This document shows positions 2,046 to 64,000 of a stretch of 64,000 nt of DNA, one piece after another. The DNA is from a virus (lineage: Duplodnaviria > Caudoviricetes), in the IMG/VR virus record IMGVR_UViG_3300025674_000014; one strand, given 5' to 3'. The notes below the pieces were generated by a model. That model was given only the letters and a program-made list of their open reading frames with translations, ran no database searches and had not been told where the DNA came from. Made by a program: the position numbers and the translations under genes. Every line of letters begins with the position of its first letter. Position 1 is the stretch's first letter.

Positions 2046-2073
2046 GACTTATTAACCTTACATGTTATTTCAA
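2046..2073 (-). promoter_or_regulatory. early/middle-type promoter (imperfect -10) for groES
   Basis: TTGAAA-N16-TAAGTC, ATG 5 nt later. Confidence 0.5.
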
Positions 2074-2466
2074 TGCTGATTTAATTTTAGTTACATCTAT
2101 TTTACCTGAATCAAGATATTGTTCTACTTCACGTCTAGATATTTCAAAACGTTTAGCAAGAAACTTTACTATCTCATCAAAGTTATTAATATCTTTTCTT
2201 TTCTCTTTTTTGATATAATGAATACGTCCAGGTGAACCTTTTGGTAATATTTTAATCAGATAATCATACCACTCTCTCTTCGTATCAAATACGTTATAAT
2301 GCTTGTTAGTAGTCTCATTAATAATCTGAGCATACTCAGGAGAGTACATACTCAACCACCTACAAACAATATAAGGAAGAAACTGATCTTCATCCTCAAC
2401 GTTATCCAAAAGGTTACCCTTCTTAGTAACAATTATATCATTTAGAATTTCAAAGATATTGAGCAT
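2065..2466 (-). CDS. 62: clamp loader small subunit (T4 gp62-like)
   Basis: F.PYIV.RWLSM...YDYL...LPK....YIKK...LAK.FEIS.REV.QYL; size 133 aa. Confidence 0.7.
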   Translation of the reverse strand: MLNIFEILNDIIVTKKGNLLDNVEDEDQFLPYIVCRWLSMYSPEYAQIINETTNKHYNVFDTKREWYDYLIKILPKGSPGRIHYIKKEKRKDINNFDEIVKFLAKRFEISRREVEQYLDSGKIDVTKIKSALK

Positions 2467-2471
2467 TACAA

Positions 2472-3062
2472 TTACTTAATGATAACTTTAGACGTAGCAA
2501 CGAACATATCGTCATTCAACTCATAGAATGCTTTGTTTACTTCACTACAGAAATTATTCACTTGCTCATCAGTAAAATTAGTACTAAATGCAAATGCAGG
2601 AGCTTTCTTACCAGCTACTACATTGATACCAGTATGACCAAGAGCAACACCATCTTTAACATACGTAATACTAACACTTACTTTACCTTCTTGCTGCGTA
2701 ACACCACCTTGAGTAAATTCTTTCTGCACCATAATATCATCTCCATCCATATAGATAGGACAATTCAGGTATTCAGGCTTAGCTAGAATATTAGCAATAC
2801 AAGTATTAAGTAATCTCTGATATGCTACTGCACCAAAAGGATTATCTAGGATAGGAATTTCCCATAGAAAGTTAATTGAGTCATCACTCCAGATGAATTC
2901 TTGCTTATCTACATCTTCCTGATCGATCATTCCATCAGCAAGCACTTCCATAGGAGCTCTAAATGATACTAGATTACCAATTGGTAATACTTTATCTTTG
3001 AAAAACTTATATGCAAATCTGCTATGAAGAAGATTACCGTCATATTTTTCTACATTAAACAT
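2472..3062 (-). CDS. DUF366 family protein (BPL/LplA-like fold)
   Basis: YDG..L...FAY...G..VSFR.PM....MIDQEDV...I.SDD.INF..E....AV..QRLL....GDDI...KVSVSI....LGH.GINV. Confidence 0.7.
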   Translation of the reverse strand: MFNVEKYDGNLLHSRFAYKFFKDKVLPIGNLVSFRAPMEVLADGMIDQEDVDKQEFIWSDDSINFLWEIPILDNPFGAVAYQRLLNTCIANILAKPEYLNCPIYMDGDDIMVQKEFTQGGVTQQEGKVSVSITYVKDGVALGHTGINVVAGKKAPAFAFSTNFTDEQVNNFCSEVNKAFYELNDDMFVATSKVIIK

Positions 3063-3068
3063 ATAGTC

Positions 3069-3096
3069 ATTATATCACCTCTGCAAAGAAGACCAA
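3069..3096 (-). promoter_or_regulatory. early/middle-type promoter for DUF366
   Basis: TTGGTC-N16-TATAAT, ATG 6 nt later. Confidence 0.75.
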
Positions 3097-3596
3097 CGTT
3101 TATGAGCGGTATTTATAATTTTTTTTGCTTCAGATTTACCCAACCATCCATTAATTTTTACATCTTTATCTTCAAGGTCTTTATAATGAGAAAAGAAATT
3201 AAATGTAGTTGAAACCCAATGTGGGTCTAGATCTTTTAGAGAACGATAATCCTTTACGTGAGAAACAGGTACCGTAATAATCTTAAAATCTTTATCACCA
3301 TTATCATCCATATCTAAAACAGCTATTGGATAAACTTCTACTAAAGTACCAGTTTTGATAGGTACGTTATTATAAACACAAACATCTAGAGGGTCATTAT
3401 CTAAAGCTAAAGTTTGAGGTACAAATCCATACGAACAGGTGTATCTCATACTACTGTAAAGACATCTGCTAAGTTTAAAGATACCTAATTGTTCATCGTA
3501 CTCATACTTGGCATTGGTATCTTTTTCAACTTCAATTATAGCATTTATCCTTAAAGGAGCATCTATACCTATTGGAATATCATTTACTAAATTCAT
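3075..3596 (-). CDS. ppa: family I inorganic pyrophosphatase
   Basis: AKYEYD, YGFVPQTL..DNDPLDV, D.G.KD.KII, FF..YKDLE. Confidence 0.92.
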   Translation of the reverse strand: MNLVNDIPIGIDAPLRINAIIEVEKDTNAKYEYDEQLGIFKLSRCLYSSMRYTCSYGFVPQTLALDNDPLDVCVYNNVPIKTGTLVEVYPIAVLDMDDNGDKDFKIITVPVSHVKDYRSLKDLDPHWVSTTFNFFSHYKDLEDKDVKINGWLGKSEAKKIINTAHKRWSSLQR

Positions 3597-9835: not shown

Positions 9836-10053
9836 CAGTCAAACAAATCAGTAAAGAAACCTTTTCTTGGAATATCTTCTTTGTTCTTATCTGCTCTATC
9901 TTTTGCAACTTTTAGTTCTCTTTCAGTAAACAAAAGACAAAATTCATCATTAGATTGATTTTCAACCCAAATAGCAAGATATTCAGGATTAGCACCGAAT
10001 TTTCTTTCCTTGTTATCTACTCTGATAATTTTACCTGCTTTAACTTTGGTCAT
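9835..10053 (-). CDS. hypothetical protein, first gene of glycan operon
   Basis: 72 aa ORF directly after a promoter motif; 1-nt overlap with next gene. Confidence 0.55.
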   Translation of the reverse strand: MTKVKAGKIIRVDNKERKFGANPEYLAIWVENQSNDEFCLLFTERELKVAKDRADKNKEDIPRKGFFTDLFD

Positions 10054-10059
10054 TATTGT

Positions 10060-10087
10060 ATTTTAGATTAAATACTTAAAATGTCCA
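10060..10087 (-). promoter_or_regulatory. early/middle-type promoter for 10053-3075 glycan operon
   Basis: TGGACA-N16-TAAAAT, ATG 6 nt later. Confidence 0.7.
10069..10074 (+). promoter_or_regulatory. gp55-type late promoter
   Basis: TAAATA, ATG 6 nt later. Confidence 0.7.
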
Positions 10088-12767: not shown

Positions 12768-12795
12768 ATTATATGGAAGTATCTTTTAAATTCAA
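12768..12795 (-). promoter_or_regulatory. early/middle-type promoter for thyX
   Basis: TTGAAT-N16-TATAAT, ATG 7 nt later. Confidence 0.8.
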
Positions 12796-15177: not shown

Positions 15178-15183
15178 TATTTA
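15178..15183 (-). promoter_or_regulatory. gp55-type late promoter (15172-sodA-12796 operon)
   Basis: TAAATA, ATG 5 nt later. Confidence 0.7.
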
Positions 15184-16158: not shown

Positions 16159-16231
16159 TAATATATTTTAATGAAAAACTATAATAATCAATTATCTTAA
16201 TCAATTAGAAAATAGGTTAATATATTTGTTG

Positions 16232-21566: not shown

Positions 21567-21594
21567 AATTTAAGTTACTAAATTAAACTTTCAA
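21567..21594 (-). promoter_or_regulatory. early/middle-type promoter for 21561 glycan block
   Basis: TTGAAA-N16-TAAATT, ATG 5 nt later. Confidence 0.7.
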
Positions 21595-22332
21595 TGCTTT
21601 ATCCCAAAGTAGCAAATGTAACCTAGGACTAAAGTTAAAGTGATACTCTTTAGCAAGCTCAGCAACATCTGCTGCAACTCTAATATGTTCTTCACGACTA
21701 CCAGCACAAGGCATCAACCAAACACGACCAGTTGGTATATCAAACTTATCAACATACTCAGTCATAATTTCTTCCATATCACGGTGACTTTGTACTACAA
21801 ACTTAAACCCTGAATTATGCATTGTATGCCAATCGAGCACCTCTTCAATATAACGCTTGCCTTTAGGATCGCCATTTGACTTTAGTTTAGGTGAAGTAGT
21901 AAATGTAGCTTGGAACTCATCTATCCATCGATCTGAAGGATATATAGTTGCATTAGTTTCAAAATCGATACGAGGTACAAAACCCCACTCTTGTTTCAAG
22001 TAATCGATGAACTTAAGAAGTTTAGCTTGCTGGATAAGAGGTTCGCCACCAGTTAGTTTAAGAATAGCACCATTAAATAAATGATCTTTATAACCATTAT
22101 CTTCTAGCATACACCTAATATGGTAAAATGACATCTTATTCTTAATACTCCATGAAATATAACTATCACAACCATATGGTGCATCTTCAGACTTAAACCC
22201 AATACACGTTAGGTTACACATCGACATTCTCATAAACACCGATGGCATGCCTACATACTCACCTTCACCTTCTATAGTATAGAAAATTTTATCATCACTA
22301 AGAAATATAGTCTCATCCTTAAGTTCAATCAT
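21583..22332 (-). CDS. queE: 7-carboxy-7-deazaguanine synthase (radical SAM)
   Basis: FYTIEGEG...G.PSVF.R...CNL.C, LTGGEPL, ETN, SPKL, KFVV, LMP, FSPRLH..LW. Confidence 0.85.
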   Translation of the reverse strand: MIELKDETIFLSDDKIFYTIEGEGEYVGMPSVFMRMSMCNLTCIGFKSEDAPYGCDSYISWSIKNKMSFYHIRCMLEDNGYKDHLFNGAILKLTGGEPLIQQAKLLKFIDYLKQEWGFVPRIDFETNATIYPSDRWIDEFQATFTTSPKLKSNGDPKGKRYIEEVLDWHTMHNSGFKFVVQSHRDMEEIMTEYVDKFDIPTGRVWLMPCAGSREEHIRVAADVAELAKEYHFNFSPRLHLLLWDKALKV

Positions 22333-22338
22333 ATTATT

Positions 22339-22366: not shown

Positions 22367-22369
22367 GCA

Positions 22370-22375: not shown

Positions 22376-22382
22376 CTTGTAT

Positions 22383-44324: not shown

Positions 44325-44351
44325 GGATTATGCTTTGTTATAATATATTAT
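44324..44351 (+). promoter_or_regulatory. early/middle-type promoter for gene 47
   Basis: TGGATT-N16-TATTAT, GTG 7 nt later. Confidence 0.65.
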
Positions 44352-48021: not shown

Positions 48022-48024
48022 ATA
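48019..48024 (+). promoter_or_regulatory. gp55-type late promoter (GT4-like gene)
   Basis: TAAATA using gene 46 stop codon, ATG 6 nt later. Confidence 0.6.
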
Positions 48025-49248: not shown

Positions 49249-49272
49249 TGATATATAGATTGTTCATATACT
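49245..49272 (+). promoter_or_regulatory. early/middle-type promoter for DNA polymerase
   Basis: TTGATG-N16-TATACT, ATG 6 nt later. Confidence 0.8.
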
Positions 49273-49278: not shown

Positions 49279-51867
49279 ATGTATAGAAATGTAGTGTATG
49301 AATCTGTTAAGGAACAAATGCGGTTGTTTACCTGGGACGAGGATGGTAACCGTATTCAAGTTACTCAAAGCTACAATCCATATCTTTATATTGAACCTAA
49401 GGATAATAGACATAAGAATGCTGAGTCTATCTACAAAACCCCTTTACGTAAACTAATATTCAAACGTGGTTCTGATCGTCGACGTTTTATCAAACAGAAT
49501 AACGTTAAGAGGTTGTTTGAAAACCTACCTGAAAAGCAACAGTTCTTATTAGATAACTTCTGGCAAGTAAATGAAACTTCAGACTTTACTAAGAATGAGA
49601 TCAAGATGTTATTGCTTGATATCGAGACTTATTCACCAGATAGCTTTCCTAATATCGAAAATGCTAATCACCCGATTAACGTTATTACCGTTTATGATAA
49701 TCTTGAGAAACGGTTTTATACCTGGGGTACTAAACCATATAACGGTAAAGGTAGGCCTGATCTTGAGTACAAATACTGTGTAAGTGAACGTCAACTGTTT
49801 ACTGAGTTTCTTAACTACCTTGAGAAAGACTATCCTGATATTCTAAGTGGTTGGAACTCTGAGTTCTTCGATATTCCATATATTATCAAACGTTGTGAAC
49901 GTATTATGGGTGAGGAAGAGATGAAAAGACTATCACCGGTGGGTAACGTTCATTATAGAAGTATTCAAGGTCAGTTCGGTAGACAACAAATCAAATGGTA
50001 CATTGATGGTATTGCATTGCTTGATTACTTGGACGTGTATCGTAAGTTTGCTCCATTGCGTGAGTCATATAAACTTGATGCAATTGGTGAACTTGAGTTA
50101 AATGAACGTAAGGTTGGGTTTGAAGGCATGGACCTTGCAACGTTATCTGATGTTGATTGGGACAAGTTTATTGATTACAACATTCAGGACGTAAACATTC
50201 TTGTTAAACTTGAAGAAAAGTTACAATACATTGGTTTGGTACGTATGTTAGCTTACGTTGGTTGTACTACCTTTGATGCTGCAATGGGTGCACTATCAGT
50301 AATCAATGGTGCGTTTTGTATTCGTGCTAGACATCGTAAGCAAGTCATTCCTACTTTTATTCGTGGTGAAGATACCGGTAAGAACCCAGGTGCATATGTT
50401 GGTGAACCTCAACAAGGGTTTCAAAACTATGTACTATCCTTTGACGCTAATAGTCTATACCCGAATGTGATGATTACCCTTAACTTATCACCAGAAACTA
50501 AGATTGGTAAGATCTTAGAAAAAACTGATGACATGATAGTTATGGAACTAGTTAACGGTAAAGTTAAAGAATACTCAATACCGGTGTTTAGTAAAATGAT
50601 TAAGGAACATAATCTTACAATCAGTAAAGCTAACATTGTATTCCATCAGAAAGAAATGGGTCTTATTCCTGAAATTGTTGATTACTATTATCATAAACGT
50701 AAAGGATTTAAAGATGAGTATGTTGACTTGAAGAAGCAGCATGCTGCTATGAAAAAGTCAGACCCAGACTATGATAAAGTCGGGGTTGAACTACAACGTG
50801 CTGGTACTAAACAATTAACAGTAAAGATTCTAATCAATTCGATTTATGGATACTTTGGTAACAAGAACGCTCCTATTGGTGATGACGATATTGCATCATC
50901 AGTTACATTGAGTGGTCAAGCAGTGATTAAACAAAGTAACGTAATCATTAGAGACTTTATCAAACTAAAGACAGGACTAACTGATGAAGATCTTAAGAAG
51001 AAAGACCCTATTATTTACAACGACACGGATTCATCATATGCCTCGATTGAGTTACTTATCAAACATCTGGGACTTACCTTCAAAAATGAAAAAGGAGAAG
51101 TACATGAGGACATTTATAAACTTGAAGATGAGTTGGTTGGATACCTGAATAAGGAAATCATGATATGGGGTAAGAAGACGTTCAATAGTAAAGACTGTAG
51201 ATTCGTTTTCAAGCGTGAGTGTATTGGTGAAGTTGGTATCTTCTTACAGAAAAAACGTTACGTTCTAAACATCCTTGATGATGAAGGTGCAAAGGTTAAC
51301 AAGACGAAATACACTGGGGTAGAAGTTGTTAGAACTACCTTGCCTAACTCGTTGAAACCGTATATGAAAAACGTTATTGAGATCATGCTTAGTACCCAGG
51401 ATTATCAAAAGACTAATGAAGCAATGAAAATCGTGTATGATAAGTTTAAGGAACTAAGTATATCAGAAATTGCATCTGTCATGGGCATTAAGGGATATGA
51501 AAAGTATGCTGCTCAATGTAACGGTATGAGTGTTGTAAAAGGTATGCCTATACATTGTAAGGCTGCCTATTACTATAATAACTTACTTAAAGCTAATAAA
51601 CTTGGTAAGAAGTATGAATCAATCGGTTCTGGCGACAAGGTTAGGTTCTTTTATGTAAAGAAACCAAATAAGTACAACATCGATAGTATCGCGTTTAAGT
51701 ATGAGTGGCCTGAAGAGTTTGATAAGTTCTTTAAACCTGATTATGATAAGATTTTTGAGAAGTTAATCTTTCAACCTATCGAACGTTTTTATCAAGCAGT
51801 TAGTTGGAAGTGTTATTTACCTAATCAAGCAGTGCAGTGTGATTTGTTTAGTCTATTAGGAGAATAA
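49279..51867 (+). CDS. 43: family B DNA polymerase gp43
   Basis: DIET, GWNSEFFDIPY, YNIQDV, SFDANSLYP, K.LINS.YG, YNDTDS, KKRY. Confidence 0.97.
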   Translation: MYRNVVYESVKEQMRLFTWDEDGNRIQVTQSYNPYLYIEPKDNRHKNAESIYKTPLRKLIFKRGSDRRRFIKQNNVKRLFENLPEKQQFLLDNFWQVNETSDFTKNEIKMLLLDIETYSPDSFPNIENANHPINVITVYDNLEKRFYTWGTKPYNGKGRPDLEYKYCVSERQLFTEFLNYLEKDYPDILSGWNSEFFDIPYIIKRCERIMGEEEMKRLSPVGNVHYRSIQGQFGRQQIKWYIDGIALLDYLDVYRKFAPLRESYKLDAIGELELNERKVGFEGMDLATLSDVDWDKFIDYNIQDVNILVKLEEKLQYIGLVRMLAYVGCTTFDAAMGALSVINGAFCIRARHRKQVIPTFIRGEDTGKNPGAYVGEPQQGFQNYVLSFDANSLYPNVMITLNLSPETKIGKILEKTDDMIVMELVNGKVKEYSIPVFSKMIKEHNLTISKANIVFHQKEMGLIPEIVDYYYHKRKGFKDEYVDLKKQHAAMKKSDPDYDKVGVELQRAGTKQLTVKILINSIYGYFGNKNAPIGDDDIASSVTLSGQAVIKQSNVIIRDFIKLKTGLTDEDLKKKDPIIYNDTDSSYASIELLIKHLGLTFKNEKGEVHEDIYKLEDELVGYLNKEIMIWGKKTFNSKDCRFVFKRECIGEVGIFLQKKRYVLNILDDEGAKVNKTKYTGVEVVRTTLPNSLKPYMKNVIEIMLSTQDYQKTNEAMKIVYDKFKELSISEIASVMGIKGYEKYAAQCNGMSVVKGMPIHCKAAYYYNNLLKANKLGKKYESIGSGDKVRFFYVKKPNKYNIDSIAFKYEWPEEFDKFFKPDYDKIFEKLIFQPIERFYQAVSWKCYLPNQAVQCDLFSLLGE

Positions 51868-51868: not shown

Positions 51869-52618
51869 ATGAATAGAAAAGGTATAATTTTAGCAGGTGG
51901 TAAAGGTACAAGACTTTACCCATTAACATACGGAACTACAAAAGCGTTATTACCGGTTTATGATAAACCGTTGATATATTACCCTATATCCACGTTGTTA
52001 AGCTTTGGTATTAATGAAATTTTAATTATAGGACCCACCTCTACACATCTAGAGCATATGGTAGAAGCTACTTACCCAATTAAAGATGTAACATTTAAGT
52101 ATGAGTTACAACCAGAACCTAAAGGATTAAGTGATGCATTTATTGTTGGTGAAAAGTTTATAGGTGATTCTAATGTAACATTAATACTTGGGGATAATAT
52201 ATTTGATGGTGTTTTTCCAACATTAAATCATAATAATACTATATATGGTGTTAAAGTTAAAGACCCTAAAGCATATGGTGTGTTAGATATCGACAATAAT
52301 TTAGGAATGGTTAAACGTATAGTCGAAAAACCCGAACACCCACCTTCAGATAAAGCAGTACCCGGTTTATATCATTTTGACAATACGTGTGTTGAAAAAG
52401 CTAAACAAGTTAAACCTTCTGCAAGAGGTGAAATAGAAATAACTGATCTAATAAACATGTATATTAATGAAGGTAAATTAACCGTTTCAATATTACCTGA
52501 TGATATGGCTTGGTTTGATTGTGGTACCCATGATCATCTTTTAGAAGCCGGTAATTACGTAAAAGCTATTCAAAATAGAACAGCTAGAGTGGTTGGAAAT
52601 ACTCAGATAATTTGTTAA
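51869..52618 (+). CDS. rmlA: glucose-1-phosphate thymidylyltransferase
   Basis: GIILAGGKGTRLYPLT, LLPVYDKPLIYYP, Q.EPKGL, LGDN, SARGE.EITD, WFDCGT. Confidence 0.9.
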   Translation: MNRKGIILAGGKGTRLYPLTYGTTKALLPVYDKPLIYYPISTLLSFGINEILIIGPTSTHLEHMVEATYPIKDVTFKYELQPEPKGLSDAFIVGEKFIGDSNVTLILGDNIFDGVFPTLNHNNTIYGVKVKDPKAYGVLDIDNNLGMVKRIVEKPEHPPSDKAVPGLYHFDNTCVEKAKQVKPSARGEIEITDLINMYINEGKLTVSILPDDMAWFDCGTHDHLLEAGNYVKAIQNRTARVVGNTQIIC

Positions 52619-52621
52619 TAT
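52594..52621 (+). promoter_or_regulatory. early/middle-type promoter for ORF 52628
   Basis: TGGAAA-N16-TAATAT, ATG 6 nt later. Confidence 0.65.
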
Positions 52622-53010: not shown

Positions 53011-53033
53011 AAGCCCCGAAAGGGGCTTTTTTT
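53011..53033 (+). terminator. rho-independent terminator (GAAA loop)
   Basis: aagcccc-gaaa-ggggc-ttttttt. Confidence 0.92.
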
Positions 53034-53038: not shown

Positions 53039-53066
53039 TTGATATAATTAGGTTATATCTTATTAT
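53039..53066 (+). promoter_or_regulatory. early/middle-type promoter for uvsX
   Basis: TTGATA-N16-TATTAT, ATG 6 nt later. Confidence 0.8.
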
Positions 53067-53072: not shown

Positions 53073-54161
53073 ATGGCTAAAAAAGATGAATTAAATGATG
53101 TATTTGCAAGTTTAGATAAACTTAACCCTGAAGCTACTTACCTTAAAGATAATGCACTTTCAAATGTTGATACTTGGTATGATACCGGTTGTTATGCACT
53201 AAATGCTATCCTAGGTGGTAGTTGTCGTGAGGGTGGGGTTCCTAAAGGTAGGTTAGTTGGGTTTTCTGGACCATCACAATCTGGTAAGACATTTATTATT
53301 AATAAGATTTTAGGTAATGCACAGAAACAAGGTATTCACCCTGTTATTTTTGATACCGAGTTTGCTGTAGATGCTGCTAGTACTGAAGGGGTTGGGCTAG
53401 ATGCTAGTAGAACTAAGTATGTACCTGTATATACTGTTGAACAATGTCGTAATCAGGTAGTTGCCCTTTTGGATTCTATTAAGGAAAAAGGTTTACAAGG
53501 TAAGTTTATTATTTCTATTGATTCATTAGGTAACCTTGCATCCCAAAAAGAAGTAGATGATGCTGCTAAAGATAAGTCTGCAATGGATATGGGTCTTAGA
53601 GCTAAACAGCTTAAGTCCATGATGCGTATTCTTACTTATAAGGCAGGTGCAGCTGGTTGTACCATTCTATTCAGTAATCATACCTATGACGATCCATCTG
53701 CTTTGATGCCTTCATTGATTAAGCAAGCAGCTGGTGGTAGTGGGCCACAGTATATGGCTTCCATTCTATGTCAGCTTGCTAAGAAAAATGAACGTCAAGA
53801 TGCAAGTAACGATGAAGACGAAATTCTACCTGAAGCTCGTAACTATTCTGGTACCACTCTAAGGTTTCTAACTACTAAGAATCGTTTTGTACCGCCTCTA
53901 CTACAGGCTGAGATTTATCTTAACTATAAATCAGGTCTTGATAGGTATAGTGGTGTTAAAGATATGGCTGTTAATCATGGTGTACTAACTCAAACAGGAT
54001 CAACCTTTCAGATTAACATTGATAGTGAAGATGGTAAACGTAAAGTAGGTGATAAAATCGGTTATTACAAGAATTGGCGTAAAGATGAAGATCTTTGGGA
54101 AAACTATATTATACCAGAATTGGATAAAAAGTTGAAATCCGCCTATAAGTACGGTAAATAG
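53073..54161 (+). CDS. uvsX: RecA-like recombinase UvsX
   Basis: DTG.YALNAILG, GPSQSGKT, FDTE, IDSLGNL, NHTY, GG.G..Y, KNR. Confidence 0.92.
   Translation: MAKKDELNDVFASLDKLNPEATYLKDNALSNVDTWYDTGCYALNAILGGSCREGGVPKGRLVGFSGPSQSGKTFIINKILGNAQKQGIHPVIFDTEFAVDAASTEGVGLDASRTKYVPVYTVEQCRNQVVALLDSIKEKGLQGKFIISIDSLGNLASQKEVDDAAKDKSAMDMGLRAKQLKSMMRILTYKAGAAGCTILFSNHTYDDPSALMPSLIKQAAGGSGPQYMASILCQLAKKNERQDASNDEDEILPEARNYSGTTLRFLTTKNRFVPPLLQAEIYLNYKSGLDRYSGVKDMAVNHGVLTQTGSTFQINIDSEDGKRKVGDKIGYYKNWRKDEDLWENYIIPELDKKLKSAYKYGK
54155..54160 (+). promoter_or_regulatory. gp55-type late promoter (carbamoyltransferase)
   Basis: TAAATA, ATG 7 nt later. Confidence 0.6.
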
Positions 54162-54167: not shown

Positions 54168-55769
54168 ATGGCTAACATCGCAATCTACGGCTCGCATAAT
54201 GGCGCTATTGCCTTGGAAAATAACGGTGAATATCACGTTATTGAATTTGAACGTTTTTTTAATGTAAAAAATATTGGTCTAGCACAATACAAGCCTCTTC
54301 GTTATAGAGAAGAAGCTGTTTATGCAATGTTAGACTACATTGATAAGGAACTAGGATTTAAAGCTCCTTTCGATAACATGATTCACATTAATACTGAATG
54401 TGTTCATGACGATATTACTTACAGTTACAAGGATTATATTCCTGCTAAGAACGTTTATGAAGGTTGGCACCATCATGCACATGCAAGTGGATCCTTCTAT
54501 CAATCTGATTTTAAACAGGCCTTAATTTTTAGTTTCGACGGCGGTGGTAATGATGGTTTTTTCAACATCTTTTTAGCCGATAGAAAAAATGGTGTTACAT
54601 ATCTTGATAAAACCAACCCCGCCGATCGAACTAAATACGACTTCGACTTTGGGTTCCCATATATGTGTTTTGCACACTTTTGCAAAGACATTAAACAGGA
54701 ATGGATTTCAGATGGTAACCTAGTATACAGTGGTAAGATCATGGGACTCTGTAACTTTGGTAAGAGCAGAGATGAATGGTTACCTCACTTTAAGAAATTT
54801 TATTATGCTAAACCAGATGGTGAAAATTATATTAGATTCTTAAAAGAGTATATTGGAGATCCTTGTGGTTTGGTGTTTGATGAAAACAATAGACTTGAAG
54901 GTCAGTTAAGTTGGGACGTTGCAGCTACATCTCAAAAGGCTTTTGAAGAGTGCTTTTATGAAGTAGCTAAGCCTTATTTAGACAAATATGAGTTACCTAT
55001 TATTATTACTGGTGGGTGTGGTCTTAACATATTACTTAGCACTGATCTACGGCAGCGTTATCCTGAACGGGGTGTCTTCGTGGCTCCTAACACTAATGAT
55101 TGTGGAATTGCTGTTGGGTTATTGGCCGGTTTTAATAAACCCGATACTCCTATTGATATTACATACGGTGGTACGGAACTAATCGATAAAAATACATACC
55201 CTGCTTGGATTGAAAGTAACGTTGCCAAGCCAGTTACATTTAATGCTATTGTTAGTGAACTATGTAGTGGTAAAATCTTTGGAGTTGCAAGAGGTAGGTG
55301 TGAACACGGCCCTAGAGCTCTTGGTAACAGGTCAATTATCTGTAACCCAGCCTTCCCTGAGATGAAAGATATTCTTAACCATAAAGTTAAGCATAGGGAA
55401 TGGTACAGACCATTTGCCCCGGTATGTAGACTAGAAGATGCGTCTAAGTACTTTGAATGGGAAGGAGAATCAAGGCACATGTTATATTGTCCAAGGGTAA
55501 GACCTGAATGGCAAGATAAGCTTTCATCTATTACCCATATTGATGGTACTGCAAGACTTCAAACAGTAACAAGAGAACAAAATGAATGGTTATATGACCT
55601 TCTTACTGAGTTTGAAAAGAAAGCAGGTCATGGGGTTCTTCTCAATACTTCATTTAATATTGCAGGTAAACCAATTCTCAATACTATTGCCGATGCTATG
55701 TGGGTGTTAGAACACTCACAAATGGATTATCTCATTATTGAAGATTTTTACTATGGTAAACATTGGTAA
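54168..55769 (+). CDS. NodU/CmcH-family carbamoyltransferase
   Basis: SHN, E.ERF...K, HH.AHA..SF, DGGG, GKIMGL, GG..LN, P..ND.G, G..E.GPRALGNRSI, K.RE.YRPFAP, DGT.R.QTV, LNTSFN. Confidence 0.92.
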   Translation: MANIAIYGSHNGAIALENNGEYHVIEFERFFNVKNIGLAQYKPLRYREEAVYAMLDYIDKELGFKAPFDNMIHINTECVHDDITYSYKDYIPAKNVYEGWHHHAHASGSFYQSDFKQALIFSFDGGGNDGFFNIFLADRKNGVTYLDKTNPADRTKYDFDFGFPYMCFAHFCKDIKQEWISDGNLVYSGKIMGLCNFGKSRDEWLPHFKKFYYAKPDGENYIRFLKEYIGDPCGLVFDENNRLEGQLSWDVAATSQKAFEECFYEVAKPYLDKYELPIIITGGCGLNILLSTDLRQRYPERGVFVAPNTNDCGIAVGLLAGFNKPDTPIDITYGGTELIDKNTYPAWIESNVAKPVTFNAIVSELCSGKIFGVARGRCEHGPRALGNRSIICNPAFPEMKDILNHKVKHREWYRPFAPVCRLEDASKYFEWEGESRHMLYCPRVRPEWQDKLSSITHIDGTARLQTVTREQNEWLYDLLTEFEKKAGHGVLLNTSFNIAGKPILNTIADAMWVLEHSQMDYLIIEDFYYGKHW

Positions 55770-55781
55770 TAGTTCTATAAT
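55754..55781 (+). promoter_or_regulatory. early/middle-type promoter for queC
   Basis: TGGTAA-N16-TATAAT, ATG 7 nt later. Confidence 0.7.
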
Positions 55782-56586: not shown

Positions 56587-57167
56587 TAGTCCTCTAAATC
56601 GTCGTCCTGATATTCGGACATATCATCATCAGGGCGATCATCAATTTCATCATACTCCGTGTCCATAGAAGCGGTGGGATCAACATAATCAGCAGTAGTT
56701 GGTTCCACCGCTTCGCCACCTTTAATGTTAATTTCGTCTAAGTAACCATCAGCTATCATTCCACCTAAAAGTACTTCTGCTTCCTTTTTATCCATTCCTG
56801 TTTTAGTAAGGAACTCCATTATGTCTTTAGCTTTTGCTGAATCGTCTGCTTCAACATATCTTACAACATCACGTTGAGCTGTGTTTAATCTTTCTTCGTA
56901 CGATTTATCAGCAACTTTAAATTCTCTATTACCAAGTTTAACCTTATTACTGGTTTTTTCTTTTCGTTGTCTTGTTGCTCTTGATCTTACACCAGAACCT
57001 TTACCTTTTAACCTCATCATCATTTCATAATAAGACTCTTTTCTTTCTTCACCGGTGTCAGGATCTACGACAGTTTTACGTTCTCTATCTTTGTATTGTT
57101 TTTTACGCCCTTCTTCAATGGACTGCATATACGATTCAAATAGAAATTGATTTTCTCTGTCTTTCAT
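56583..57167 (-). CDS. hypothetical late protein (basic N-half, acidic C-tail)
   Basis: TAAATA 6 nt upstream; MKDRENQFLFESYMQSIEEG. Confidence 0.6.
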   Translation of the reverse strand: MKDRENQFLFESYMQSIEEGRKKQYKDRERKTVVDPDTGEERKESYYEMMMRLKGKGSGVRSRATRQRKEKTSNKVKLGNREFKVADKSYEERLNTAQRDVVRYVEADDSAKAKDIMEFLTKTGMDKKEAEVLLGGMIADGYLDEINIKGGEAVEPTTADYVDPTASMDTEYDEIDDRPDDDMSEYQDDDLEDY

Positions 57168-57173
57168 TATTAT

Positions 57174-57179
57174 TATTTA
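57174..57179 (-). promoter_or_regulatory. gp55-type late promoter
   Basis: TAAATA, ATG 6 nt later. Confidence 0.7.
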
Positions 57180-57183: not shown

Positions 57184-57795
57184 ATGTGTGCAATATTTGG
57201 TACAAAAAATAAAGAACAATTTGATTCATTATATGAACTAAATCATAAACGTGGTGGGTTTGCATTCAGTGCAGTTTTTAGGAACAAAGAAGGTAAGTTT
57301 ATGACTACTAAAGGTCGTAAATATATCAAACCACTAAGTAATGCAAAGTATATTCTAGCCCATGACCAAGCCCCTACTTCTTCAGTTCGGTTGTATGATT
57401 ACCGTACTTCTCACCCGTTTGTTTGTGGTGAGTGGGTGGTGGCACATAATGGTGTATTAACTAATCATAAGGAACTGTTAAAAGAACACAATTGTGATGT
57501 TGATAGTAGTTATATACCCGCTCTTCTCGATAAGGAGACTAAAGGAGAAGTAACTTCTATTGAAAATGTGTGTAGTTTATTAGAAGGTACATTTGCTTGT
57601 TGGATAGTTAATAGAACAAGTGGTAACATTTACTTGGTTAAACAAGGTAGTACGCTATTTTATGATGGTGCTACATTTTCATCGGTAAAATTTACTGGTA
57701 GTTATGCATTGAGAGACGGGGTTGTTTATCTTGTTGAAGATACAATTGCTCCAATTGGTAAGTTTAAAAGTAACAGTCCTTTTGCATTGATATAG
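57184..57795 (+). CDS. class II (Ntn) glutamine amidotransferase
   Basis: N-terminal MC.IFG, RG, AH..APT, HPF, VAHNG, DS. Confidence 0.8.
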   Translation: MCAIFGTKNKEQFDSLYELNHKRGGFAFSAVFRNKEGKFMTTKGRKYIKPLSNAKYILAHDQAPTSSVRLYDYRTSHPFVCGEWVVAHNGVLTNHKELLKEHNCDVDSSYIPALLDKETKGEVTSIENVCSLLEGTFACWIVNRTSGNIYLVKQGSTLFYDGATFSSVKFTGSYALRDGVVYLVEDTIAPIGKFKSNSPFALI

Positions 57796-57820
57796 ACAGC
57801 TACTTTATAAAATATTTTAT

Positions 57821-58900
57821 ATGAAAAGAGCACTCGTATGCGGCGGAGGTGGTTTCATTGGAAGTCACCTCGTTTCCCGTCTTAAAGAAGAAGGATACTG
57901 GGTTAGAGCAGTAGACCTTAAGGAACCGGAATTTTCAACAACCAAAGCTGATGAATTTGTTGGTGGTGATTTAACTGACTATAACTTTGTTCGTGAAGTA
58001 ATTGTAACTGGTGATTATTTCCATAAACCACCTATTCAATATAGAGAGCAGTTCGATGAAATCTATCAACTTGCTGCTGATATGGGTGGCGCTGGTTATA
58101 TTTTTACTGGTGAAAACGATGCTAATGTTATGCAGAACTCAGCATCTATTAACTTAAATATATTAAAGGCTGTAGATGAGTCGAACCTGTTTTTTCGATC
58201 TGATTGGTATCATGAGGCACGTTTAGAACACACTTCTTATAAACCTATTGATACTAAGATATTCTACAGTAGCTCAGCGTGTATGTACCCTGAACATAAC
58301 CAATTAGACCCGGAGAACCCTAACTGTGAAGAAAGTTCCGCATACCCGGCCAACCCAGATAGTGAATATGGATGGGAAAAGCTATTTAGCGAAAGGTTAT
58401 ACCTTGCTTATAATCGGAATAGGGGTATACCCGTTCGTATTGCACGTTTTCACAATATTTTCGGACCTGAAGGAACATGGAAAGGTGGAAGAGAAAAGGC
58501 CCCAGCAGCATTATGTAGAAAGTTTGCCGAAGCCGAATCAGGAGACACCATAGAAGTATGGGGTGACGGTGAACAAACACGGTCTTTCTTATATGTTCAT
58601 GAGTGTGTTGAGGGTATCCGTCGTTTAATGGAATCAGACTTTACCGGTCCAGTTAATATTGGTTCAGATGAGATGGTAACTATTAATAAAATGGTAGAAT
58701 ACCTTAAATCCATTAGCGGTAAATCACTAAAACCAGTACATAAGTTAGATGCACCAACAGGAGTGCGTGGAAGAAACAGTGATAATAAGCTTATCCAAGA
58801 AAAGCTTGGTTGGTCACCTAATTTTTCCTTAAAAGATGGGTTACAACTTACCTATAGATGGATTCTTGAACAAGTAAAACTTGATAAACAAAAGGCATAA
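57821..58900 (+). CDS. GDP-mannose 3,5-epimerase-like NAD-dependent epimerase
   Basis: GGGGFIGSH, QLAADMGGAG.I, YSSSAC.YP, YG.EKL, RFHNIFGP.G.W.GGREKAPAA.CRK. Confidence 0.85.
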   Translation: MKRALVCGGGGFIGSHLVSRLKEEGYWVRAVDLKEPEFSTTKADEFVGGDLTDYNFVREVIVTGDYFHKPPIQYREQFDEIYQLAADMGGAGYIFTGENDANVMQNSASINLNILKAVDESNLFFRSDWYHEARLEHTSYKPIDTKIFYSSSACMYPEHNQLDPENPNCEESSAYPANPDSEYGWEKLFSERLYLAYNRNRGIPVRIARFHNIFGPEGTWKGGREKAPAALCRKFAEAESGDTIEVWGDGEQTRSFLYVHECVEGIRRLMESDFTGPVNIGSDEMVTINKMVEYLKSISGKSLKPVHKLDAPTGVRGRNSDNKLIQEKLGWSPNFSLKDGLQLTYRWILEQVKLDKQKA

Positions 58901-58909
58901 GTATATAAT
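58881..58909 (+). promoter_or_regulatory. early/middle-type promoter for gene 41 (17-nt spacer variant)
   Basis: TTGATA-N17-TATAAT, ATG 11 nt later. Confidence 0.6.
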
Positions 58910-60283: not shown

Positions 60284-61180
60284 ATGTCCGGTAGGTGTTA
60301 TGTATTTACTGATGCTGATTTAGATGGTGTTGGTAGTTTTATGGTTAGTAGGTGGTTAAAGGGTATAACATCCTTTACCACAACTACTCATAAACACTTT
60401 AGAGAAGATTTTGTTAGGTGGTTGTCGTCTAATAAGCTTTCCGACTATGAAAAAGTCTATATATTCGACATCAACGTTGCTGAACATTTTGATTTACTTG
60501 ATCATCCTAACGTTAACGTTATTGATCACCATAATGGTAAAGATGGTTACGTAAATTTTAATAAAGCTACGTTGGTGCTCGACCAAGACTTTAGTTCTAC
60601 TACTAAGTTAGTACTTAAAACATTTCTTCGTGAAGATCCTTCCTTAAGTTCCAAGTTAACTCATCAAATAGCCAAGTTTGTTAACCTTGTGGATGATTAT
60701 GATAGCTATAAATTAGCTTTACCTGACAGTATCGGTCTTAATAACGTGTTATGGTCGTATACCGGTAACCGTGTTACTAAGTTCTTAGAAGAGTTTAGTT
60801 TAGGCTTTAATGGTTTCAGTACGTTCCATAAAAACATGATAGCTATAGCCGAAAAGAAGGTACAAGATACAGTTAATACTGTTGATACGTTCATGGTTAA
60901 CTTTCCTATAGATGGAAAGGAACGTAAAGTGGTGTGTATTCAATGTGACCATAACATAAATGAAGTAGCTTATGAAGTTTTAAAGAAACATAACGCAGAT
61001 ATTTGTTTAGTTGTTAATTTAAAATCAAAAAGTGTAAGTTTTAGAAAATCAAAGTCGTGTAACGTTAACCTTTCTAAGTTAGCTAACAAGTTATGTGACG
61101 GTGGAGGTCATTCTGACTCTGCAGGCGGAGCAGTTAATGAAAAATTTCTTAAATTAAGTAAGATGTTTACTAAAATATGA
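60284..61180 (+). CDS. DHH/DHHA1 phosphoesterase (RecJ/NrnA-like)
   Basis: D.DLDG, FDI, IDHH, D, GGGH..SAG. Confidence 0.8.
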   Translation: MSGRCYVFTDADLDGVGSFMVSRWLKGITSFTTTTHKHFREDFVRWLSSNKLSDYEKVYIFDINVAEHFDLLDHPNVNVIDHHNGKDGYVNFNKATLVLDQDFSSTTKLVLKTFLREDPSLSSKLTHQIAKFVNLVDDYDSYKLALPDSIGLNNVLWSYTGNRVTKFLEEFSLGFNGFSTFHKNMIAIAEKKVQDTVNTVDTFMVNFPIDGKERKVVCIQCDHNINEVAYEVLKKHNADICLVVNLKSKSVSFRKSKSCNVNLSKLANKLCDGGGHSDSAGGAVNEKFLKLSKMFTKI

Positions 61181-61470
61181 AAATCTCAAGTAACAACCCT
61201 TTAGAAAATACGTATGTTAAAGAGACAACTCATACGTTTATGGGGTTTTGTTCCTTTATTTCTATTTTACATAACAAAAAAATTAATTTACCTAACATCT
61301 TTATAATGCTTCTTAAAGATAGGAAGCTTAGAACATTTTTTAAAGAACTTTTAGACATTGATACTGATTATGAATTTGTTCAAATGTTTTTATTCTTTGA
61401 TCCCTCTCTTCATAAAAGCAAATACATAATGAAGTATGTCAATAGTAGGAGAAAAAACTTGATATTGTAG
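61177..61470 (+). CDS. hypothetical protein (position and size of T4 gp33)
   Basis: 97 aa; positional argument only. Confidence 0.45.
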   Translation: MKISSNNPLENTYVKETTHTFMGFCSFISILHNKKINLPNIFIMLLKDRKLRTFFKELLDIDTDYEFVQMFLFFDPSLHKSKYIMKYVNSRRKNLIL

Positions 61471-61486
61471 AGTTTATCTTTATTAT
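61459..61486 (+). promoter_or_regulatory. early/middle-type promoter for ORF 61494
   Basis: TTGATA-N16-TATTAT, ATG 7 nt later. Confidence 0.8.
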
Positions 61487-61493: not shown

Positions 61494-62138
61494 ATGACTG
61501 ACTTTGAAAAGTTAATTTATAATCGACATCTTGCTGAAACTAGATCTAGTCAAGGCAAACCTTTTAAACTAAGACAAAACTTCGATAAAATTGACGAGTC
61601 AACAAAAGTATACCTTACCCGCTTATCAAACTTCTTTAATAAACATAAAAATATTAACATAAATAAATTTTTTAGAGCTCCATTTAAGATATACAAAGAT
61701 AAACCTCATCTTGGGCTTGATTTTTATCTAAGTATGAAAGCAGTCAAGCTTTATCGAGAGTATATCAATTCAATTAACAGGCAATCTCCAGATTCAGATG
61801 ATGCTAAATTAGGTTTTAAACAATCTATGGAGTTTGTTATCAAGTTTTGCAAAGATAAACAAATTAAATTTTCTGATTATGTTAATCACAAGGAGGAAAA
61901 TGCAATGAATTCGTTTTTTGAGCATTTAAAACACGGAAAAGTTACATTACTTTTTCTTTTTATGTATCCATCTTTTGAACTGCAACTTAAAACCGTAGAC
62001 GTTGAAATGAGACAACATATTTTAGGTGATACATTTAATGATATTACCAATATGAGAGTTAAATTTTACAATTGTTCAGAACAAACCAAAGGTATATTCA
62101 AAAAACATTTTGATAATGCCGTAAAAGTAATGGGTTGA
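61494..62138 (+). CDS. possible helicase loader (gp59-like)
   Basis: 214 aa, directly upstream of gene 32 as in T4; no motif confirmed. Confidence 0.4.
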   Translation: MTDFEKLIYNRHLAETRSSQGKPFKLRQNFDKIDESTKVYLTRLSNFFNKHKNININKFFRAPFKIYKDKPHLGLDFYLSMKAVKLYREYINSINRQSPDSDDAKLGFKQSMEFVIKFCKDKQIKFSDYVNHKEENAMNSFFEHLKHGKVTLLFLFMYPSFELQLKTVDVEMRQHILGDTFNDITNMRVKFYNCSEQTKGIFKKHFDNAVKVMG

Positions 62139-62162
62139 TTTAAAATCGGTTTCTTCTATAAT
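62135..62162 (+). promoter_or_regulatory. early/middle-type promoter for gene 32
   Basis: TTGATT-N16-TATAAT, followed by a long leader. Confidence 0.8.
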
Positions 62163-62169
62163 TAATTTT

Positions 62170-62230
62170 GTAAGGTGGCGAGTGTTACCTATACGAAAAA
62201 TAACGAAATAAAAACTAAAACTAAACTAAA
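62170..62230 (+). promoter_or_regulatory. gene 32 5' leader: hairpin plus unstructured A-rich tract (putative autogenous operator)
   Basis: gtaAGGTGGC-gagt-GTTACCTatac stem-loop then gaaaaataacgaaataaaaactaaaactaaactaaa. Confidence 0.6.
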
Positions 62231-63097
62231 ATGACAAATATTAATACATTATTCGAAAGCATCAAAGGTTCTATGGAAAAAGCAACTGGACAATCAACCA
62301 GAGGTCAGTTTCTTAGGACAGAAGTAGGTAATACATATACGGTTAGGTTGATTCCTAACGTTAAAGACCCAGCTAAGACATTCTTCCATTACTATACACA
62401 TGGATGGACATCGTTTGCAACTGGTCAGTACGTTAATCATATCAGTCCTAATACGTGGGGTGAACGTGATCCTATTGCAGAGACAAGGTATAGGTTGTCT
62501 AAGACTGGTTCTGAAGAAGAAAAGTCAAAAGCATCATCTATTCTTCGTCGTGAAAACTGGATGGTCAATGTACTTGTTATAAATGACCCGGTTAATCCTG
62601 ATAATAATGGTACGATTAAGTTGCTTCGCTTTGGTAGACAGTTGCATAAGATCATTATGGAAGCTATGCAAGGTGAAGAAGCTGAAGATTTCGGTCCTCG
62701 CATCTTTGACGTTGCTAATGGCTGTGATTTTCGTATCAAAGTTGAGAAGCAAGGTGATTATCCTACCTATGTTTCATCAAAATTCGGTATGCCTAAGTCA
62801 CTCACCACTGATTATGAAGGTGGTGCTGATGCAATTCATAACGATGCATTTGATCTTGAGTCAGTCTTTACAGTAAAATCGTATGACGAACTAAAAGAAG
62901 TGTTGAACGAGCATTTTTACTGTGTAAGTAATGATGAAGAAGCTAGTACCGCTACAAGTCCGGTAGCTGCAGCAGCAGTAGTAACTGAAAGTGTTGCAGC
63001 AGTCACAAAAACAGTGACTGATTCACCTGTAGAAACTAAATCTACTGATGAAGACATTGATGACTTGTTGGCGAGTCTAGGTGACCTATCATCATAA
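62231..63097 (+). CDS. 32: single-stranded DNA-binding protein gp32
   Basis: VRLIP, F.YY.H.W, P..WG..DPI, NV.VI.DP..P.N.G....R.G..L.K, G.DF.IK; acidic tail DIDDLLA.L. Confidence 0.9.
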   Translation: MTNINTLFESIKGSMEKATGQSTRGQFLRTEVGNTYTVRLIPNVKDPAKTFFHYYTHGWTSFATGQYVNHISPNTWGERDPIAETRYRLSKTGSEEEKSKASSILRRENWMVNVLVINDPVNPDNNGTIKLLRFGRQLHKIIMEAMQGEEAEDFGPRIFDVANGCDFRIKVEKQGDYPTYVSSKFGMPKSLTTDYEGGADAIHNDAFDLESVFTVKSYDELKEVLNEHFYCVSNDEEASTATSPVAAAAVVTESVAAVTKTVTDSPVETKSTDEDIDDLLASLGDLSS

Positions 63098-63098
63098 C

Positions 63099-63602
63099 AT
63101 GTCTGAAGAACGTACAAATGTAAATTACGACGCGGTTAGTCCGGCTCCAACAGGGCCGGACAACCCTTACGATGATGCCTTAGCTTTTCGTTCACTATTA
63201 GGGGCTGTTCACGGTGAATTTGATAGAATGGTGAATAGTAACATGGTGTCAGAATCAAAAACCCTACAAAAAGTAAATGGTAAAGCCATTTTAGAAAAGG
63301 GGGTAAAAGAATTAATGGGTAAACAACAACCTGTTAATCAAATACCACATCATGTTGAACAACAAATAGCCCAACAACAACCTATCCCTCAACCAGCTCC
63401 TCAAATTCAAGCTGCTCCACAACCAGTTCCTGTAGTACAACCTGCTGTAGATCCAAATCAACTTGAATTAAACTTTGATAAGTCTGCAACAGTTAATGAA
63501 ATTTTTGAAAAACTAGAAGATATTGAAATAAAACTTTCCAATATCACAAAAGTTTTAGAAAATATAACTCCTACCAAAAAAAAGACTCTTGTAAAAAAGT
63601 AG
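63099..63602 (+). CDS. hypothetical protein with P/Q-rich linker
   Basis: Likely start 63099, 1 nt after gene 32 stop; QLEL.F motif. Confidence 0.55.
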   Translation: MSEERTNVNYDAVSPAPTGPDNPYDDALAFRSLLGAVHGEFDRMVNSNMVSESKTLQKVNGKAILEKGVKELMGKQQPVNQIPHHVEQQIAQQQPIPQPAPQIQAAPQPVPVVQPAVDPNQLELNFDKSATVNEIFEKLEDIEIKLSNITKVLENITPTKKKTLVKK

Positions 63603-63616
63603 ATAGCTTCTATAAT
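63589..63616 (+). promoter_or_regulatory. early/middle-type promoter for sliding clamp
   Basis: TTGTAA-N16-TATAAT, ATG 5 nt later. Confidence 0.75.
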
Positions 63617-63621
63617 AGGGT

Positions 63622-64000
63622 ATGGTCATTAATATCCTAGATAAGAGTCAGTTTATTAATAGTTTTCTCAAGCCTATTAGTGCATTGACTGATGCGGTCG
63701 TCATAAAGAACGTAAATAACAAACTATTGTGCATTGCAAACAATGAGCAAGGTTTAATTTTATGTGCAACTTATGGTATCGAACTTGAAGATAGCGTTCA
63801 GCTTAATATTCCTAATGTTAAACGTTTAGAAAAAGTACTTTCATTTATTGAAGGTGAAAATCTTAAGTTAGAATATAGGTCAAATGCACTATCTTATAAA
63901 GATAAAAAGATTAGATTTAAGTATCACTTTCTAGATGATAATATTATTCAATCACCAAAGCTTAGTCTAAAGAAAATTAGTAGTCTTGAGAGTGATATTG
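63622..64000 (+). CDS. 45: sliding clamp gp45-like, N-terminal part (runs off window edge)
   Basis: Not in ORF track; MVINILDKSQFINSFLKPISALTDAVVIK...LNIPNVKRLEKVLS...IRFKYHFLDDNII. Confidence 0.7.
   Translation, partial: MVINILDKSQFINSFLKPISALTDAVVIKNVNNKLLCIANNEQGLILCATYGIELEDSVQLNIPNVKRLEKVLSFIEGENLKLEYRSNALSYKDKKIRFKYHFLDDNIIQSPKLSLKKISSLESDI

Follow-up and report, generated by a model that had tools for sequence, protein, structure and literature searches.

Can a T4-like phage express its genes without ribosome-binding sites, by starting its transcripts at the start codon itself? T4 is the textbook case of a phage with Shine-Dalgarno (SD)-led and translationally regulated mRNAs. The question is raised by a 64-kb stretch of the IMG/VR virus record IMGVR_UViG_3300025674_000014 (the whole stretch is called the window in the following), in which promoter motifs of an early, sigma70-type class and of a late, TAAATA class lie immediately before many start codons. 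Here, we analyzed the position of these motifs, the anti-SD pairing of gene starts, and the conservation of both features in a clade set of 80 IMG/VR loci (∼0.9 Mb, uvsX 45-99% identical). Judging from sequence, most transcription units of this phage are probably leaderless or nearly so. This reading is supported by the motif geometry, by a purine at the predicted +1 position that tracks the motif, by the presence of the late sigma factor gp55, by the terminator-promoter-ATG order at uvsX, by conservation in the clade and by control phages.

Promoter motifs adjoin start codons

Open reading frames (ORFs) were called greedily as the longest ORF, without using any upstream motif, which yielded 81 ORFs. 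In a prior-free test of hexamers ending 3-10 nt before the starts, TAAATA ranked top (10 genes against 0.46 expected), with all but one of its occurrences at 5-7 nt from the start, and was followed by TATTAT and TATAAT at 6-7 nt. The top words in the region from -42 to -30 were CTTGA, GTTGA and TTGAT, located at -34/-35. The bipartite pattern TTGA-N18-TAnnnT occurred at 44 sites on both strands, 11 of which ended 4-9 nt before a start (0.17 expected, P=2e-17), and no site was present in antisense orientation in the matching intervals. Similarly, 11 of the 90 TAAATA sites on both strands ended at this distance (0.34 expected, P=8e-14), and control hexamers with the same composition showed no enrichment near starts. 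The early consensus is cTTGAa, 16 bp, TATAAT; the dominant 16-bp spacer falls within the 17 bp (plus or minus 1) expected between the TTGACA-like and TATAAT-like elements of a sigma70-type promoter.

A strict match was defined as a promoter element ending 4-11 nt before the start, the element being TTGA, a spacer of 15-18 bp (mostly 16) and TAnnnT for the early type and TAAATA for the late type. By these and relaxed rules, the early type has 18 strict and 6 relaxed sites and the late type 12 and 4, respectively. The first-pass annotation of this DNA had counted 20 early-type and about 16 late-type promoters next to start codons; the examples it cited (folE at 26452, pol at 49279, uvsX at 53073 and the genes at 10081 and 31450) were all verified. 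Based on 1303 internal ATGs, the hits expected by chance per 81 starts are 0.37 and 0.19 for the strict early and late rules and 1.9 and 2.2 for the relaxed ones. Thus, the 30 strict sites compare with ∼0.6 expected, an excess of ∼50-fold, and the 10 relaxed sites with ∼4. The motif-to-start distance, whose distribution the annotation had proposed to compute, peaks at 5-7 nt, and its mode among the strict sites is 6 nt. The start codon at strict sites is ATG in 28 of 30 cases in the window and in 171 of 184 in the clade.

A -10 box located 6-8 nt before gene starts is an accepted computational signature of leaderless transcription (group C of GeneMarkS-2, PMC6028130; PMC3160421; PMC12340547). 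With 30 strict sites at a mode of 6 nt, no SD signal (see below) and a preference for AUG, the window shows, at the sequence level, the gene-start pattern of group C.

A start-site signature that follows the promoter

In a non-redundant set of sites from the window and its relatives, 91% have a purine as the sixth nucleotide after TAAATA, and the fifth nucleotide is mostly a pyrimidine. Where the ATG lies 6-10 nt from TAAATA, so that the sixth nucleotide falls at -1 to -5, this nucleotide is A in 40 of 54 sites, as compared with 33% of TAAATA sites elsewhere (Fisher P=1.5e-9). The conserved A thus moves with TAAATA and not with the ATG, which is expected of a transcription start at a fixed distance and not of a ribosome signal. 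The signature matches the late promoters of T4, 8-bp TATA boxes that occupy the -10 position, roughly one turn of the helix ahead of the start (PMC2988020). At the early-type sites, the commonest class has 6 nt between hexamer and ATG; here the A of the ATG is the seventh nucleotide after the hexamer, and 32 of 42 sites have a pyrimidine at -1. Where this distance is 8 nt, the seventh nucleotide is a purine in 15 of 16 sites, and a 2-nt leader is predicted.

These observations suggest the following model. Early promoters (TTGA, mostly 16 bp, TAtAAT) would be read by the host primary sigma factor and late promoters (TAAATA core) by the phage-encoded gp55. The predicted +1 falls on the seventh nucleotide (±1) behind the -10 hexamer and on the sixth behind TAAATA. 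Since both promoter classes adjoin the start codon, transcription would begin at the A of the AUG or 1-4 nt before it, with predicted late leaders of 0-4 nt. Such mRNAs would leave no space for an SD sequence, and direct binding of ribosomes to the AUG at the 5' end would be expected. Genes lacking both a promoter of their own and an SD would be translated by termination-reinitiation or by another SD-independent mode of initiation.

No SD signal at gene starts

To measure SD use, we computed the anti-SD duplex energy over positions -20 to -1. The mean at window starts was -0.53 kcal/mol, with 7-8% of them reaching -4.4 or lower, whereas the sense-strand internal ATGs of the window gave -1.88 kcal/mol and 13%. 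Pairing is therefore weaker at starts than at internal ATGs, meaning that the window has no SD signal, and the claim that no purine-rich SD precedes these starts was borne out. With the same caller, the corresponding values were -3.86 kcal/mol and 45% for the T4 early region, -4.88 kcal/mol and 56% for the T4 late region, -4.2 kcal/mol and 49% for HTVC008M, and -2.88 kcal/mol and 31% for P-HM2. Thus, the anti-SD pairing check that had also been proposed places the window far below T4. SD-like sites do precede five to six window genes, such as those at 51869 (AGGAG) and 14555.

T4, P-HM2 and HTVC008M share with the window the core genes, gp55, a late promoter with a TAAATA core, sigma70-type early promoters and tightly overlapping genes. 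However, T4, HTVC008M and, more weakly, P-HM2 use SD sequences, as opposed to 8% of starts at the same threshold here. In T4, TAAATA lies 9-46 nt from starts instead of 5-7 nt, and the same pipeline found no sigma70-type site 4-9 nt from a start in T4, HTVC008M or P-HM2. These controls support the view that the layout is unusual for a T4-like phage, and they extend the contrast to marine members of the group.

Conservation in relatives and the uvsX locus

The same pattern was observed in the clade set. Mean SD energies range from -0.7 to -1.1 kcal/mol; relative to the start, TAAATA is most frequent at 5-9 nt and TTGA-N18-TAnnnT at 6-9 nt, and hardly any sites occur further upstream.

The most informative single locus is uvsX (plus strand, ATG at 53073). 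An intrinsic terminator consisting of a GC hairpin and a T-run (53011-53028, plus strand) stands directly upstream of the early promoter TTGATA-16-TATTAT (53039-53066, plus strand), which ends 6 nt before the ATG. The terminator is also found in most close relatives. In relatives at least 83% identical, and in several at 45-67%, the order is terminator, TTGA, 16 bp, TATAAT, N6 (sometimes 7 or 9) and ATG; distances are held while the letters of spacer and discriminator vary. Elsewhere among the relatives, uvsX lacks a separate promoter and either touches or overlaps the gene before it. Where the terminator stands directly in front and just 36 nt are available in total, there is hardly any place for the uvsX mRNA to begin other than the AUG or its immediate neighbourhood.

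Weighing the leaderless reading and its alternatives

Several points weigh against a predominantly leaderless expression. Gene starts rest on a simple longest-ORF caller, and three of them (22383, 28381 and 31450) were shifted to a downstream in-frame ATG beside the motif, which is circular for those three. The strict set is solid, but about half of the relaxed calls, whose rules match 2-3% of internal ATGs, may be chance. The genome is AT-rich, and sigma70-like matches are equally frequent after shuffling: a generic sigma70 consensus scan gave 87 sites versus 91 in shuffled sequence, and the signal accordingly lies in the position of the motifs and not in their number. Low folding energy over the first 40 nt is a feature of all genes and not specific to the promoter-adjacent ones, and counts in relatives are not phylogenetically independent. 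The RNA data consist of assembled contigs, which cannot show transcript starts. Finally, read-through transcripts from upstream promoters, in which the same genes are internal, probably also exist.

The last point leads to the best surviving alternative, in which the motifs do act as promoters but long polycistronic read-through transcripts yield most of the protein; the AT-rich promoter would then serve as an unstructured, SD-independent landing site (Bacteroidetes-like or S1-dependent), and initiation at a 5'-terminal AUG would be a minor mode. Only a single convincing intrinsic terminator was found in 44-64 kb, many promoters are embedded in the 3' end of the preceding gene, with gaps of 6-36 nt, and the coupled genes and gp32 (see below) are evidently translated without an SD from internal or leadered positions. 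T4 genes, moreover, are commonly served by several promoters. On the other hand, the early promoters consist of two elements at a fixed spacing, the purine that stands at a constant distance behind TAAATA tracks the motif and not the ATG, and the sharp peak at 5-7 nt fits the geometry of RNA polymerase better than a loose landing pad of AT-rich sequence. At uvsX, the terminator directly before the promoter in many relatives means that the mRNA must start there. We therefore regard read-through as the main source of protein as unlikely.

A second alternative is that the layout is not a host trait and that the phage imposes this mode on its host, either by shifting translation to 5'-terminal AUGs (e.g., through the IF2/IF3 balance) or by disabling SD-dependent initiation, so that phage mRNAs would be preferred by the ribosomes. 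A precedent is the Thermus thermophilus phage phiYS40, in which most middle and late mRNAs are reported to be leaderless and IF2/IF3 levels to be changed (reviewed in PMC3594737, citing Sevostyanova 2007). It is likewise a large myovirus with whole temporal classes that are mostly leaderless. However, phiYS40 is unrelated, not T4-like and has a thermophilic Deinococcus-Thermus host, whereas here the early class appears leaderless too and the late class has a gp55-type box; its 5' ends are experimental, and those given here are predicted. An avoidance of SD sequences that goes below background and includes the first genes to be expressed (sigma70-type) as well as all coupled genes would fit such a takeover. 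Yet no translation-factor or rRNA-targeting gene was seen among the ∼50 window proteins scanned, early genes need to be translated before any phage factor exists, and the start signals of phages usually mirror those of the host. A takeover is thus improbable.

The weakest alternative, that the TA-rich hexamers are products of chance or composition and the true starts or promoters lie elsewhere, could draw on the generic scan and the permissive relaxed rules but is very improbable and already contradicted by the controls, given the ∼50-fold excess of strict sites with no antisense signal and unenriched hexamers of the same composition, the lack of the pattern in three other AT-rich T4-like phages called in the same way, its recurrence in ∼0.9 Mb of diverged relatives, and homologue alignments of pol and uvsX that reach residue 7 of the called proteins.

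Coupled genes and the gp32 leader

Leaderless starts would account for the first genes of transcription units, and the remaining genes are closely packed. Among same-strand neighbours, 47% overlap, 12 of these overlaps being ATGA, and about half of the genes overlap their predecessor or follow it within 12 nt. The ATGA-type overlaps and tiny gaps reported within operons were thus confirmed, although their frequency is ordinary for T4-like phages and not above that in T4, HTVC008M or P-HM2. The junctions are distinctive in carrying no SD: among 331 coupled clade genes, the share of G stays at or below 21% throughout positions -20 to -1. Because these downstream genes lack an SD, translational coupling is plausible on sequence grounds, by reinitiation or another SD-independent mode of initiation.

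The clearest exception to the leaderless layout is gp32, which encodes the single-stranded DNA-binding protein (plus strand, ATG at 62231; 62135-63097 including the leader). Its upstream gap is 92 nt. In its leader region (62135-62230, plus strand), a sigma70-type promoter occupies 62135-62162 and is followed by a 5' hairpin at 62166-62198 (-12.9 kcal/mol, z = -3.6) and by a 32-nt tract (62199-62230) that is unstructured, rich in A and contains CTAAA repeats; this corresponds to a leader of ∼60-65 nt. In relatives whose gp32 is at least 60% identical, the hairpin is kept by compensatory changes and the A-rich tract is also kept; in more distant relatives gp32 is of the leaderless type. T4 gene 32 has an autoregulatory leader, and the leader layout here is similar. 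By analogy, this suggests that leaders are retained where control at the mRNA level needs them. Contigs from two metatranscriptome runs both start at 62184, within the hairpin; we interpret this as an assembly break at the inverted repeat and not as a transcript start.

Other exceptions are genes that lack a clear promoter or have SD-like sites (30851, 38708 and 44324). The statement of the first-pass annotation that nearly every transcript starts at or within about 2 nt of the AUG is therefore somewhat overstated. By their sequence most units are promoter-adjacent and without an SD, as it held. The part that did not stand concerns the gp32 leader, gp41 with its -10 element at 11 nt, the five to six genes with SD-like sites, and predicted leaders that range over 0-4 nt.

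Gene content and the two promoter classes

The window has 32% G+C and a coding density of 97%, and its source is an uncultivated, deep-branching aquatic T4-like phage. It contains the T4 core set for replication, recombination and late transcription: gp43 DNA polymerase (49279-51867), uvsX, uvsY (ATG at 38889), a UvsW-like helicase (ATG at 41326), gp41 helicase (ATG at 58921), gp47 (GTG at 44359), gp46 (start at 46219), gp32 and the late sigma factor gp55 (42802-43284; PHROG 234, E=4e-29), the predicted reader of the TAAATA promoters. This test of core genes was limited to the window, and the structural core genes fall outside it. Genes for the gp33 co-activator and the gp45 clamp of T4 late transcription were not identified in the window. 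Further genes are folE, queD, a queC-like gene, thyX and a DUF366 gene, together with many sugar-modifying enzymes. Megablast against GenBank phages revealed no close relative; identity of the polymerase and of UvsX to the proteins of cultivated phages (cyanophages and pelagiphage HTVC008M) is just ∼30-33%, and IMG/VR contains at least 80 related contigs with UvsX identities of 45-99%.

The class of promoter matches the function of the gene. Early-type sites belong to replication and nucleotide metabolism, heading pol, uvsX, uvsY, uvsW, gp55, gp47, gp41, thyX, folE, queD, the queC-like gene, DUF366 and an amidotransferase gene, and late-type sites head phoH, genes for glycan-related enzymes (sulfotransferase, cytidylyltransferase-like, carbamoyltransferase, glycosyltransferase), a DUF5661 gene and genes for unknown proteins. 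Glycan and modification enzymes thus appear late, and genes of the deazaguanine pathway (folE, queD, queC-like and DUF366) carry early-type promoters.

On the plus strand, early promoters other than that of uvsX precede folE (TTGAAC-16-TATTAT at 26418-26445, 6 nt before ATG 26452), an ORF called from 28375 (28347-28376, before its second in-frame ATG at 28381), uvsY (TTGACA-18-TAATCT at 38853-38882, 6 nt before the ATG), the UvsW-like helicase gene (41291-41318, 7 nt), gp55 (42765-42792, 9 nt before ATG 42802), pol (TTGATG-16-TATACT at 49245-49272, 6 nt before ATG 49279), the amidotransferase gene (57147-57176, 18-bp spacer, 7 nt before ATG 57184), an epimerase gene (57787-57813, 15-bp spacer, 7 nt before ATG 57821), gp41 (TTGATA-17-TATAAT at 58881-58909, 11 nt, with a predicted leader of ∼4-5 nt) and the gene at ATG 61494 (61459-61486, 7 nt). 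Relaxed early promoters on this strand were assigned to gp47 (TGGATT-16-TATTAT at 44324-44351, 7 nt before the GTG), the gene at ATG 52628 (52594-52621, 6 nt), the queC-like gene (TGGTAA-16-TATAAT at 55754-55781, 7 nt before ATG 55789) and the gene at ATG 63622 (TTGTAA-16-TATAAT at 63589-63616, 5 nt). The replication block also includes a DHH/DHHA1 phosphoesterase gene (NrnA- or RecJ-like; 60284-61180), with a weak early-type promoter, TTGAAG-16-TAATTA, 6 nt before its ATG.

On the minus strand, early promoters were found for the gene at ATG 613 (622-648, 15-bp spacer, 8 nt), thyX (TTGAAT-16-TATAAT at 12768-12795, 7 nt before ATG 12760), a GDP-mannose dehydratase gene (16165-16191, 15-bp spacer, 6 nt before ATG 16158), the genes at ATG 21561 (21567-21594, 5 nt) and ATG 22332 (22339-22366, 6 nt), queD (PTPS; 23973-24000, 5 nt before ATG 23967) and the gene at GTG 38210 (38217-38244, 6 nt). 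Two relaxed minus-strand sites serve DUF366 (TTGGTC-16-TATAAT at 3069-3096, 6 nt before ATG 3062, overlapped by the SD-like GAGGTG) and the gene at ATG 10053 (10060-10087, 6 nt), the latter being the divergent partner of the late promoter at 10069.

Strict late TAAATA sites on the plus strand are located at 10069-10074 (6 nt before ATG 10081), 22370-22375 (7 nt before ATG 22383 of phoH, whose longest ORF starts at TTG 22377), 27127-27132 (5 nt before GTG 27138), 48019-48024 (6 nt before the glycosyltransferase ATG at 48031) and 54155-54160 (7 nt before ATG 54168 of the carbamoyltransferase gene and in overlap with the stop codon of uvsX). The site at 31437-31444 has the full T4 late consensus TATAAATA, in the arrangement TATAAATA-N5-ATG, 5 nt before ATG 31450. 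Those on the minus strand are at 15178-15183 (5 nt before ATG 15172), 24749-24754 (7 nt before ATG 24741), 26407-26412 (6 nt before the sulfotransferase ATG at 26400), 32592-32597 (6 nt before ATG 32585 of the cytidylyltransferase-like gene), 37647-37652 (5 nt before ATG 37641) and 57174-57179 (6 nt before ATG 57167).

The late box has weak flanks, (A)(A/G)TAAATA, and is shorter than the T4 8-mer; its TAAATA core is invariant by search design. The logo of late sites holds no -35 information, yet TTGA is present at -35 spacing in 26 of 97 sites from the window and relatives, with ∼2.4 estimated by chance. These TAAATA sites with TTGA may be dual early/late or middle-type promoters. The 90 TAAATA occurrences on both strands represent a roughly two-fold deficit relative to the ∼186 estimated from base composition, which would fit avoidance of stray late promoters. 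Two divergent gene pairs (10053-10081 and 22332-22383) are only 27 and 50 bp apart, and each gap has back-to-back promoters, early-type on the minus and late-type on the plus strand, all abutting ATGs; in the 27-bp gap the two promoters overlap.

What the expression layout says about the host

The first-pass annotation had regarded the layout as a host fingerprint. This is partly supported: the trait is clade-wide, but the promoters are sigma70-type and not Bacteroidetes-type, and both links to metagenome-assembled genomes (MAGs) are weak. Ten metatranscriptome runs, mostly from seawater, contain parts of the stretch. In four seawater runs searched over 44-64 kb, short contigs that are 88-100% identical extend over most genes, with the phage and close strains present.

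Only two MAG contigs matched in a scan of genome contigs, labelled Bacteriovoracaceae (42% identity) and Melainabacteria (57%). The first, a 118-kb contig, carries a distant uvsX relative (42% identity) with the same SD-less layout. Its MAG has two large low-GC contigs (118 kb, 29% GC; 158 kb, 30% GC), and the other sampled contigs have 36-39% GC; SD sequences were found at 33% of starts in the sampled contigs. The link to Bacteriovoracaceae was rejected, since the GC split and the SD use of the other contigs indicate that the match is probably mis-binned; the two low-GC contigs together look like a binned jumbo phage. The MAG labelled Melainabacteria yielded too few genes for a judgement.

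A Bacteroidetes host would explain the missing SD. Marine Bacteroidetes hosts were predicted in silico for a 180-kb, 32% G+C T4-like environmental genome with queuosine genes and for Far-T4 phages (PMC7198788), while no host is given for Far-T4 phages in PMC4360716. Bacteroidetes expression shares the missing SD with the window, but its promoters and leaders differ from TTGA/TATAAT abutting the ATG. The phylum uses TTTG/TAnnTTTG promoters with the -7 element TAnnTTTG and leaders of ∼30 nt, E. coli-type promoters fail in it, and leaders of more than 10 nt are present on 87% of the mRNAs of Flavobacterium johnsoniae (PMC6847099). The -7 element (as TAHHTTTG) was not enriched upstream of starts, with 5 occurrences versus 4.2 expected in the window and 26 versus 36 in relatives. 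The promoter type thus gives no support for a Bacteroidetes host.

Leaderless-rich phyla include Actinobacteria and Deinococcus-Thermus (PMC6028130). No markers for either were found in the window, and an actinobacterial lead was dropped because the window encodes no WhiB-like protein. An ESM Atlas look-up of the GDP-mannose dehydratase returned mixed phyla and no host signal. Most likely, the trait reflects a host with SD-independent ribosomes and an RNA polymerase that uses canonical -35/-10 promoters.

Comparison with known systems and implications

Leaderless starts are already known elsewhere. Group C genomes share with the window a -10 box 6-8 nt before first-in-operon starts and the absence of an SD there (PMC6028130; PMC12340547; PMC3160421). 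However, 25-50% of their operons are leaderless and their internal genes usually keep an SD, whereas here internal genes lack it and the -35 TTGA is clear. The only Far-T4 isolate, RM378, was rejected as a close model (family A polymerase, weak SD use, no TAAATA pattern). Our literature search for leaderless expression in T4-like phages found no report, only citations of gene-finder papers. The new aspect would be the involvement of both temporal classes, including gp55-type late promoters, in a large aquatic clade.

A wider possibility, which we offer only tentatively and consider rather doubtful at present, is that a globally distributed clade of aquatic T4-like jumbo phages gave up ribosome-binding sites and uses 5'-terminal AUGs for its early and late genes alike, pointing either to an unrecognised, abundant SD-independent host group with sigma70-type promoters or to active re-programming of the ribosome towards leaderless mRNAs as a means of takeover. 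In both cases, the promoter-to-ATG distance would be a computational marker for linking phages of the clade to their hosts. The combination of sigma70-type promoters, no SD and leaderless starts constrains the host and argues against Bacteroidetes despite the in-silico prediction for a similar genome (PMC7198788). Gene callers that expect a ribosome-binding site will mis-set starts in genomes of this clade. The constant distances (N5 between TAAATA and +1, N6 between the -10 element and the ATG) allow precise prediction of the start codon and the temporal class for hundreds of unknown genes. If the leaderless reading is true, the clade would show how far the expression logic of the T4 family can change while its core genes stay.

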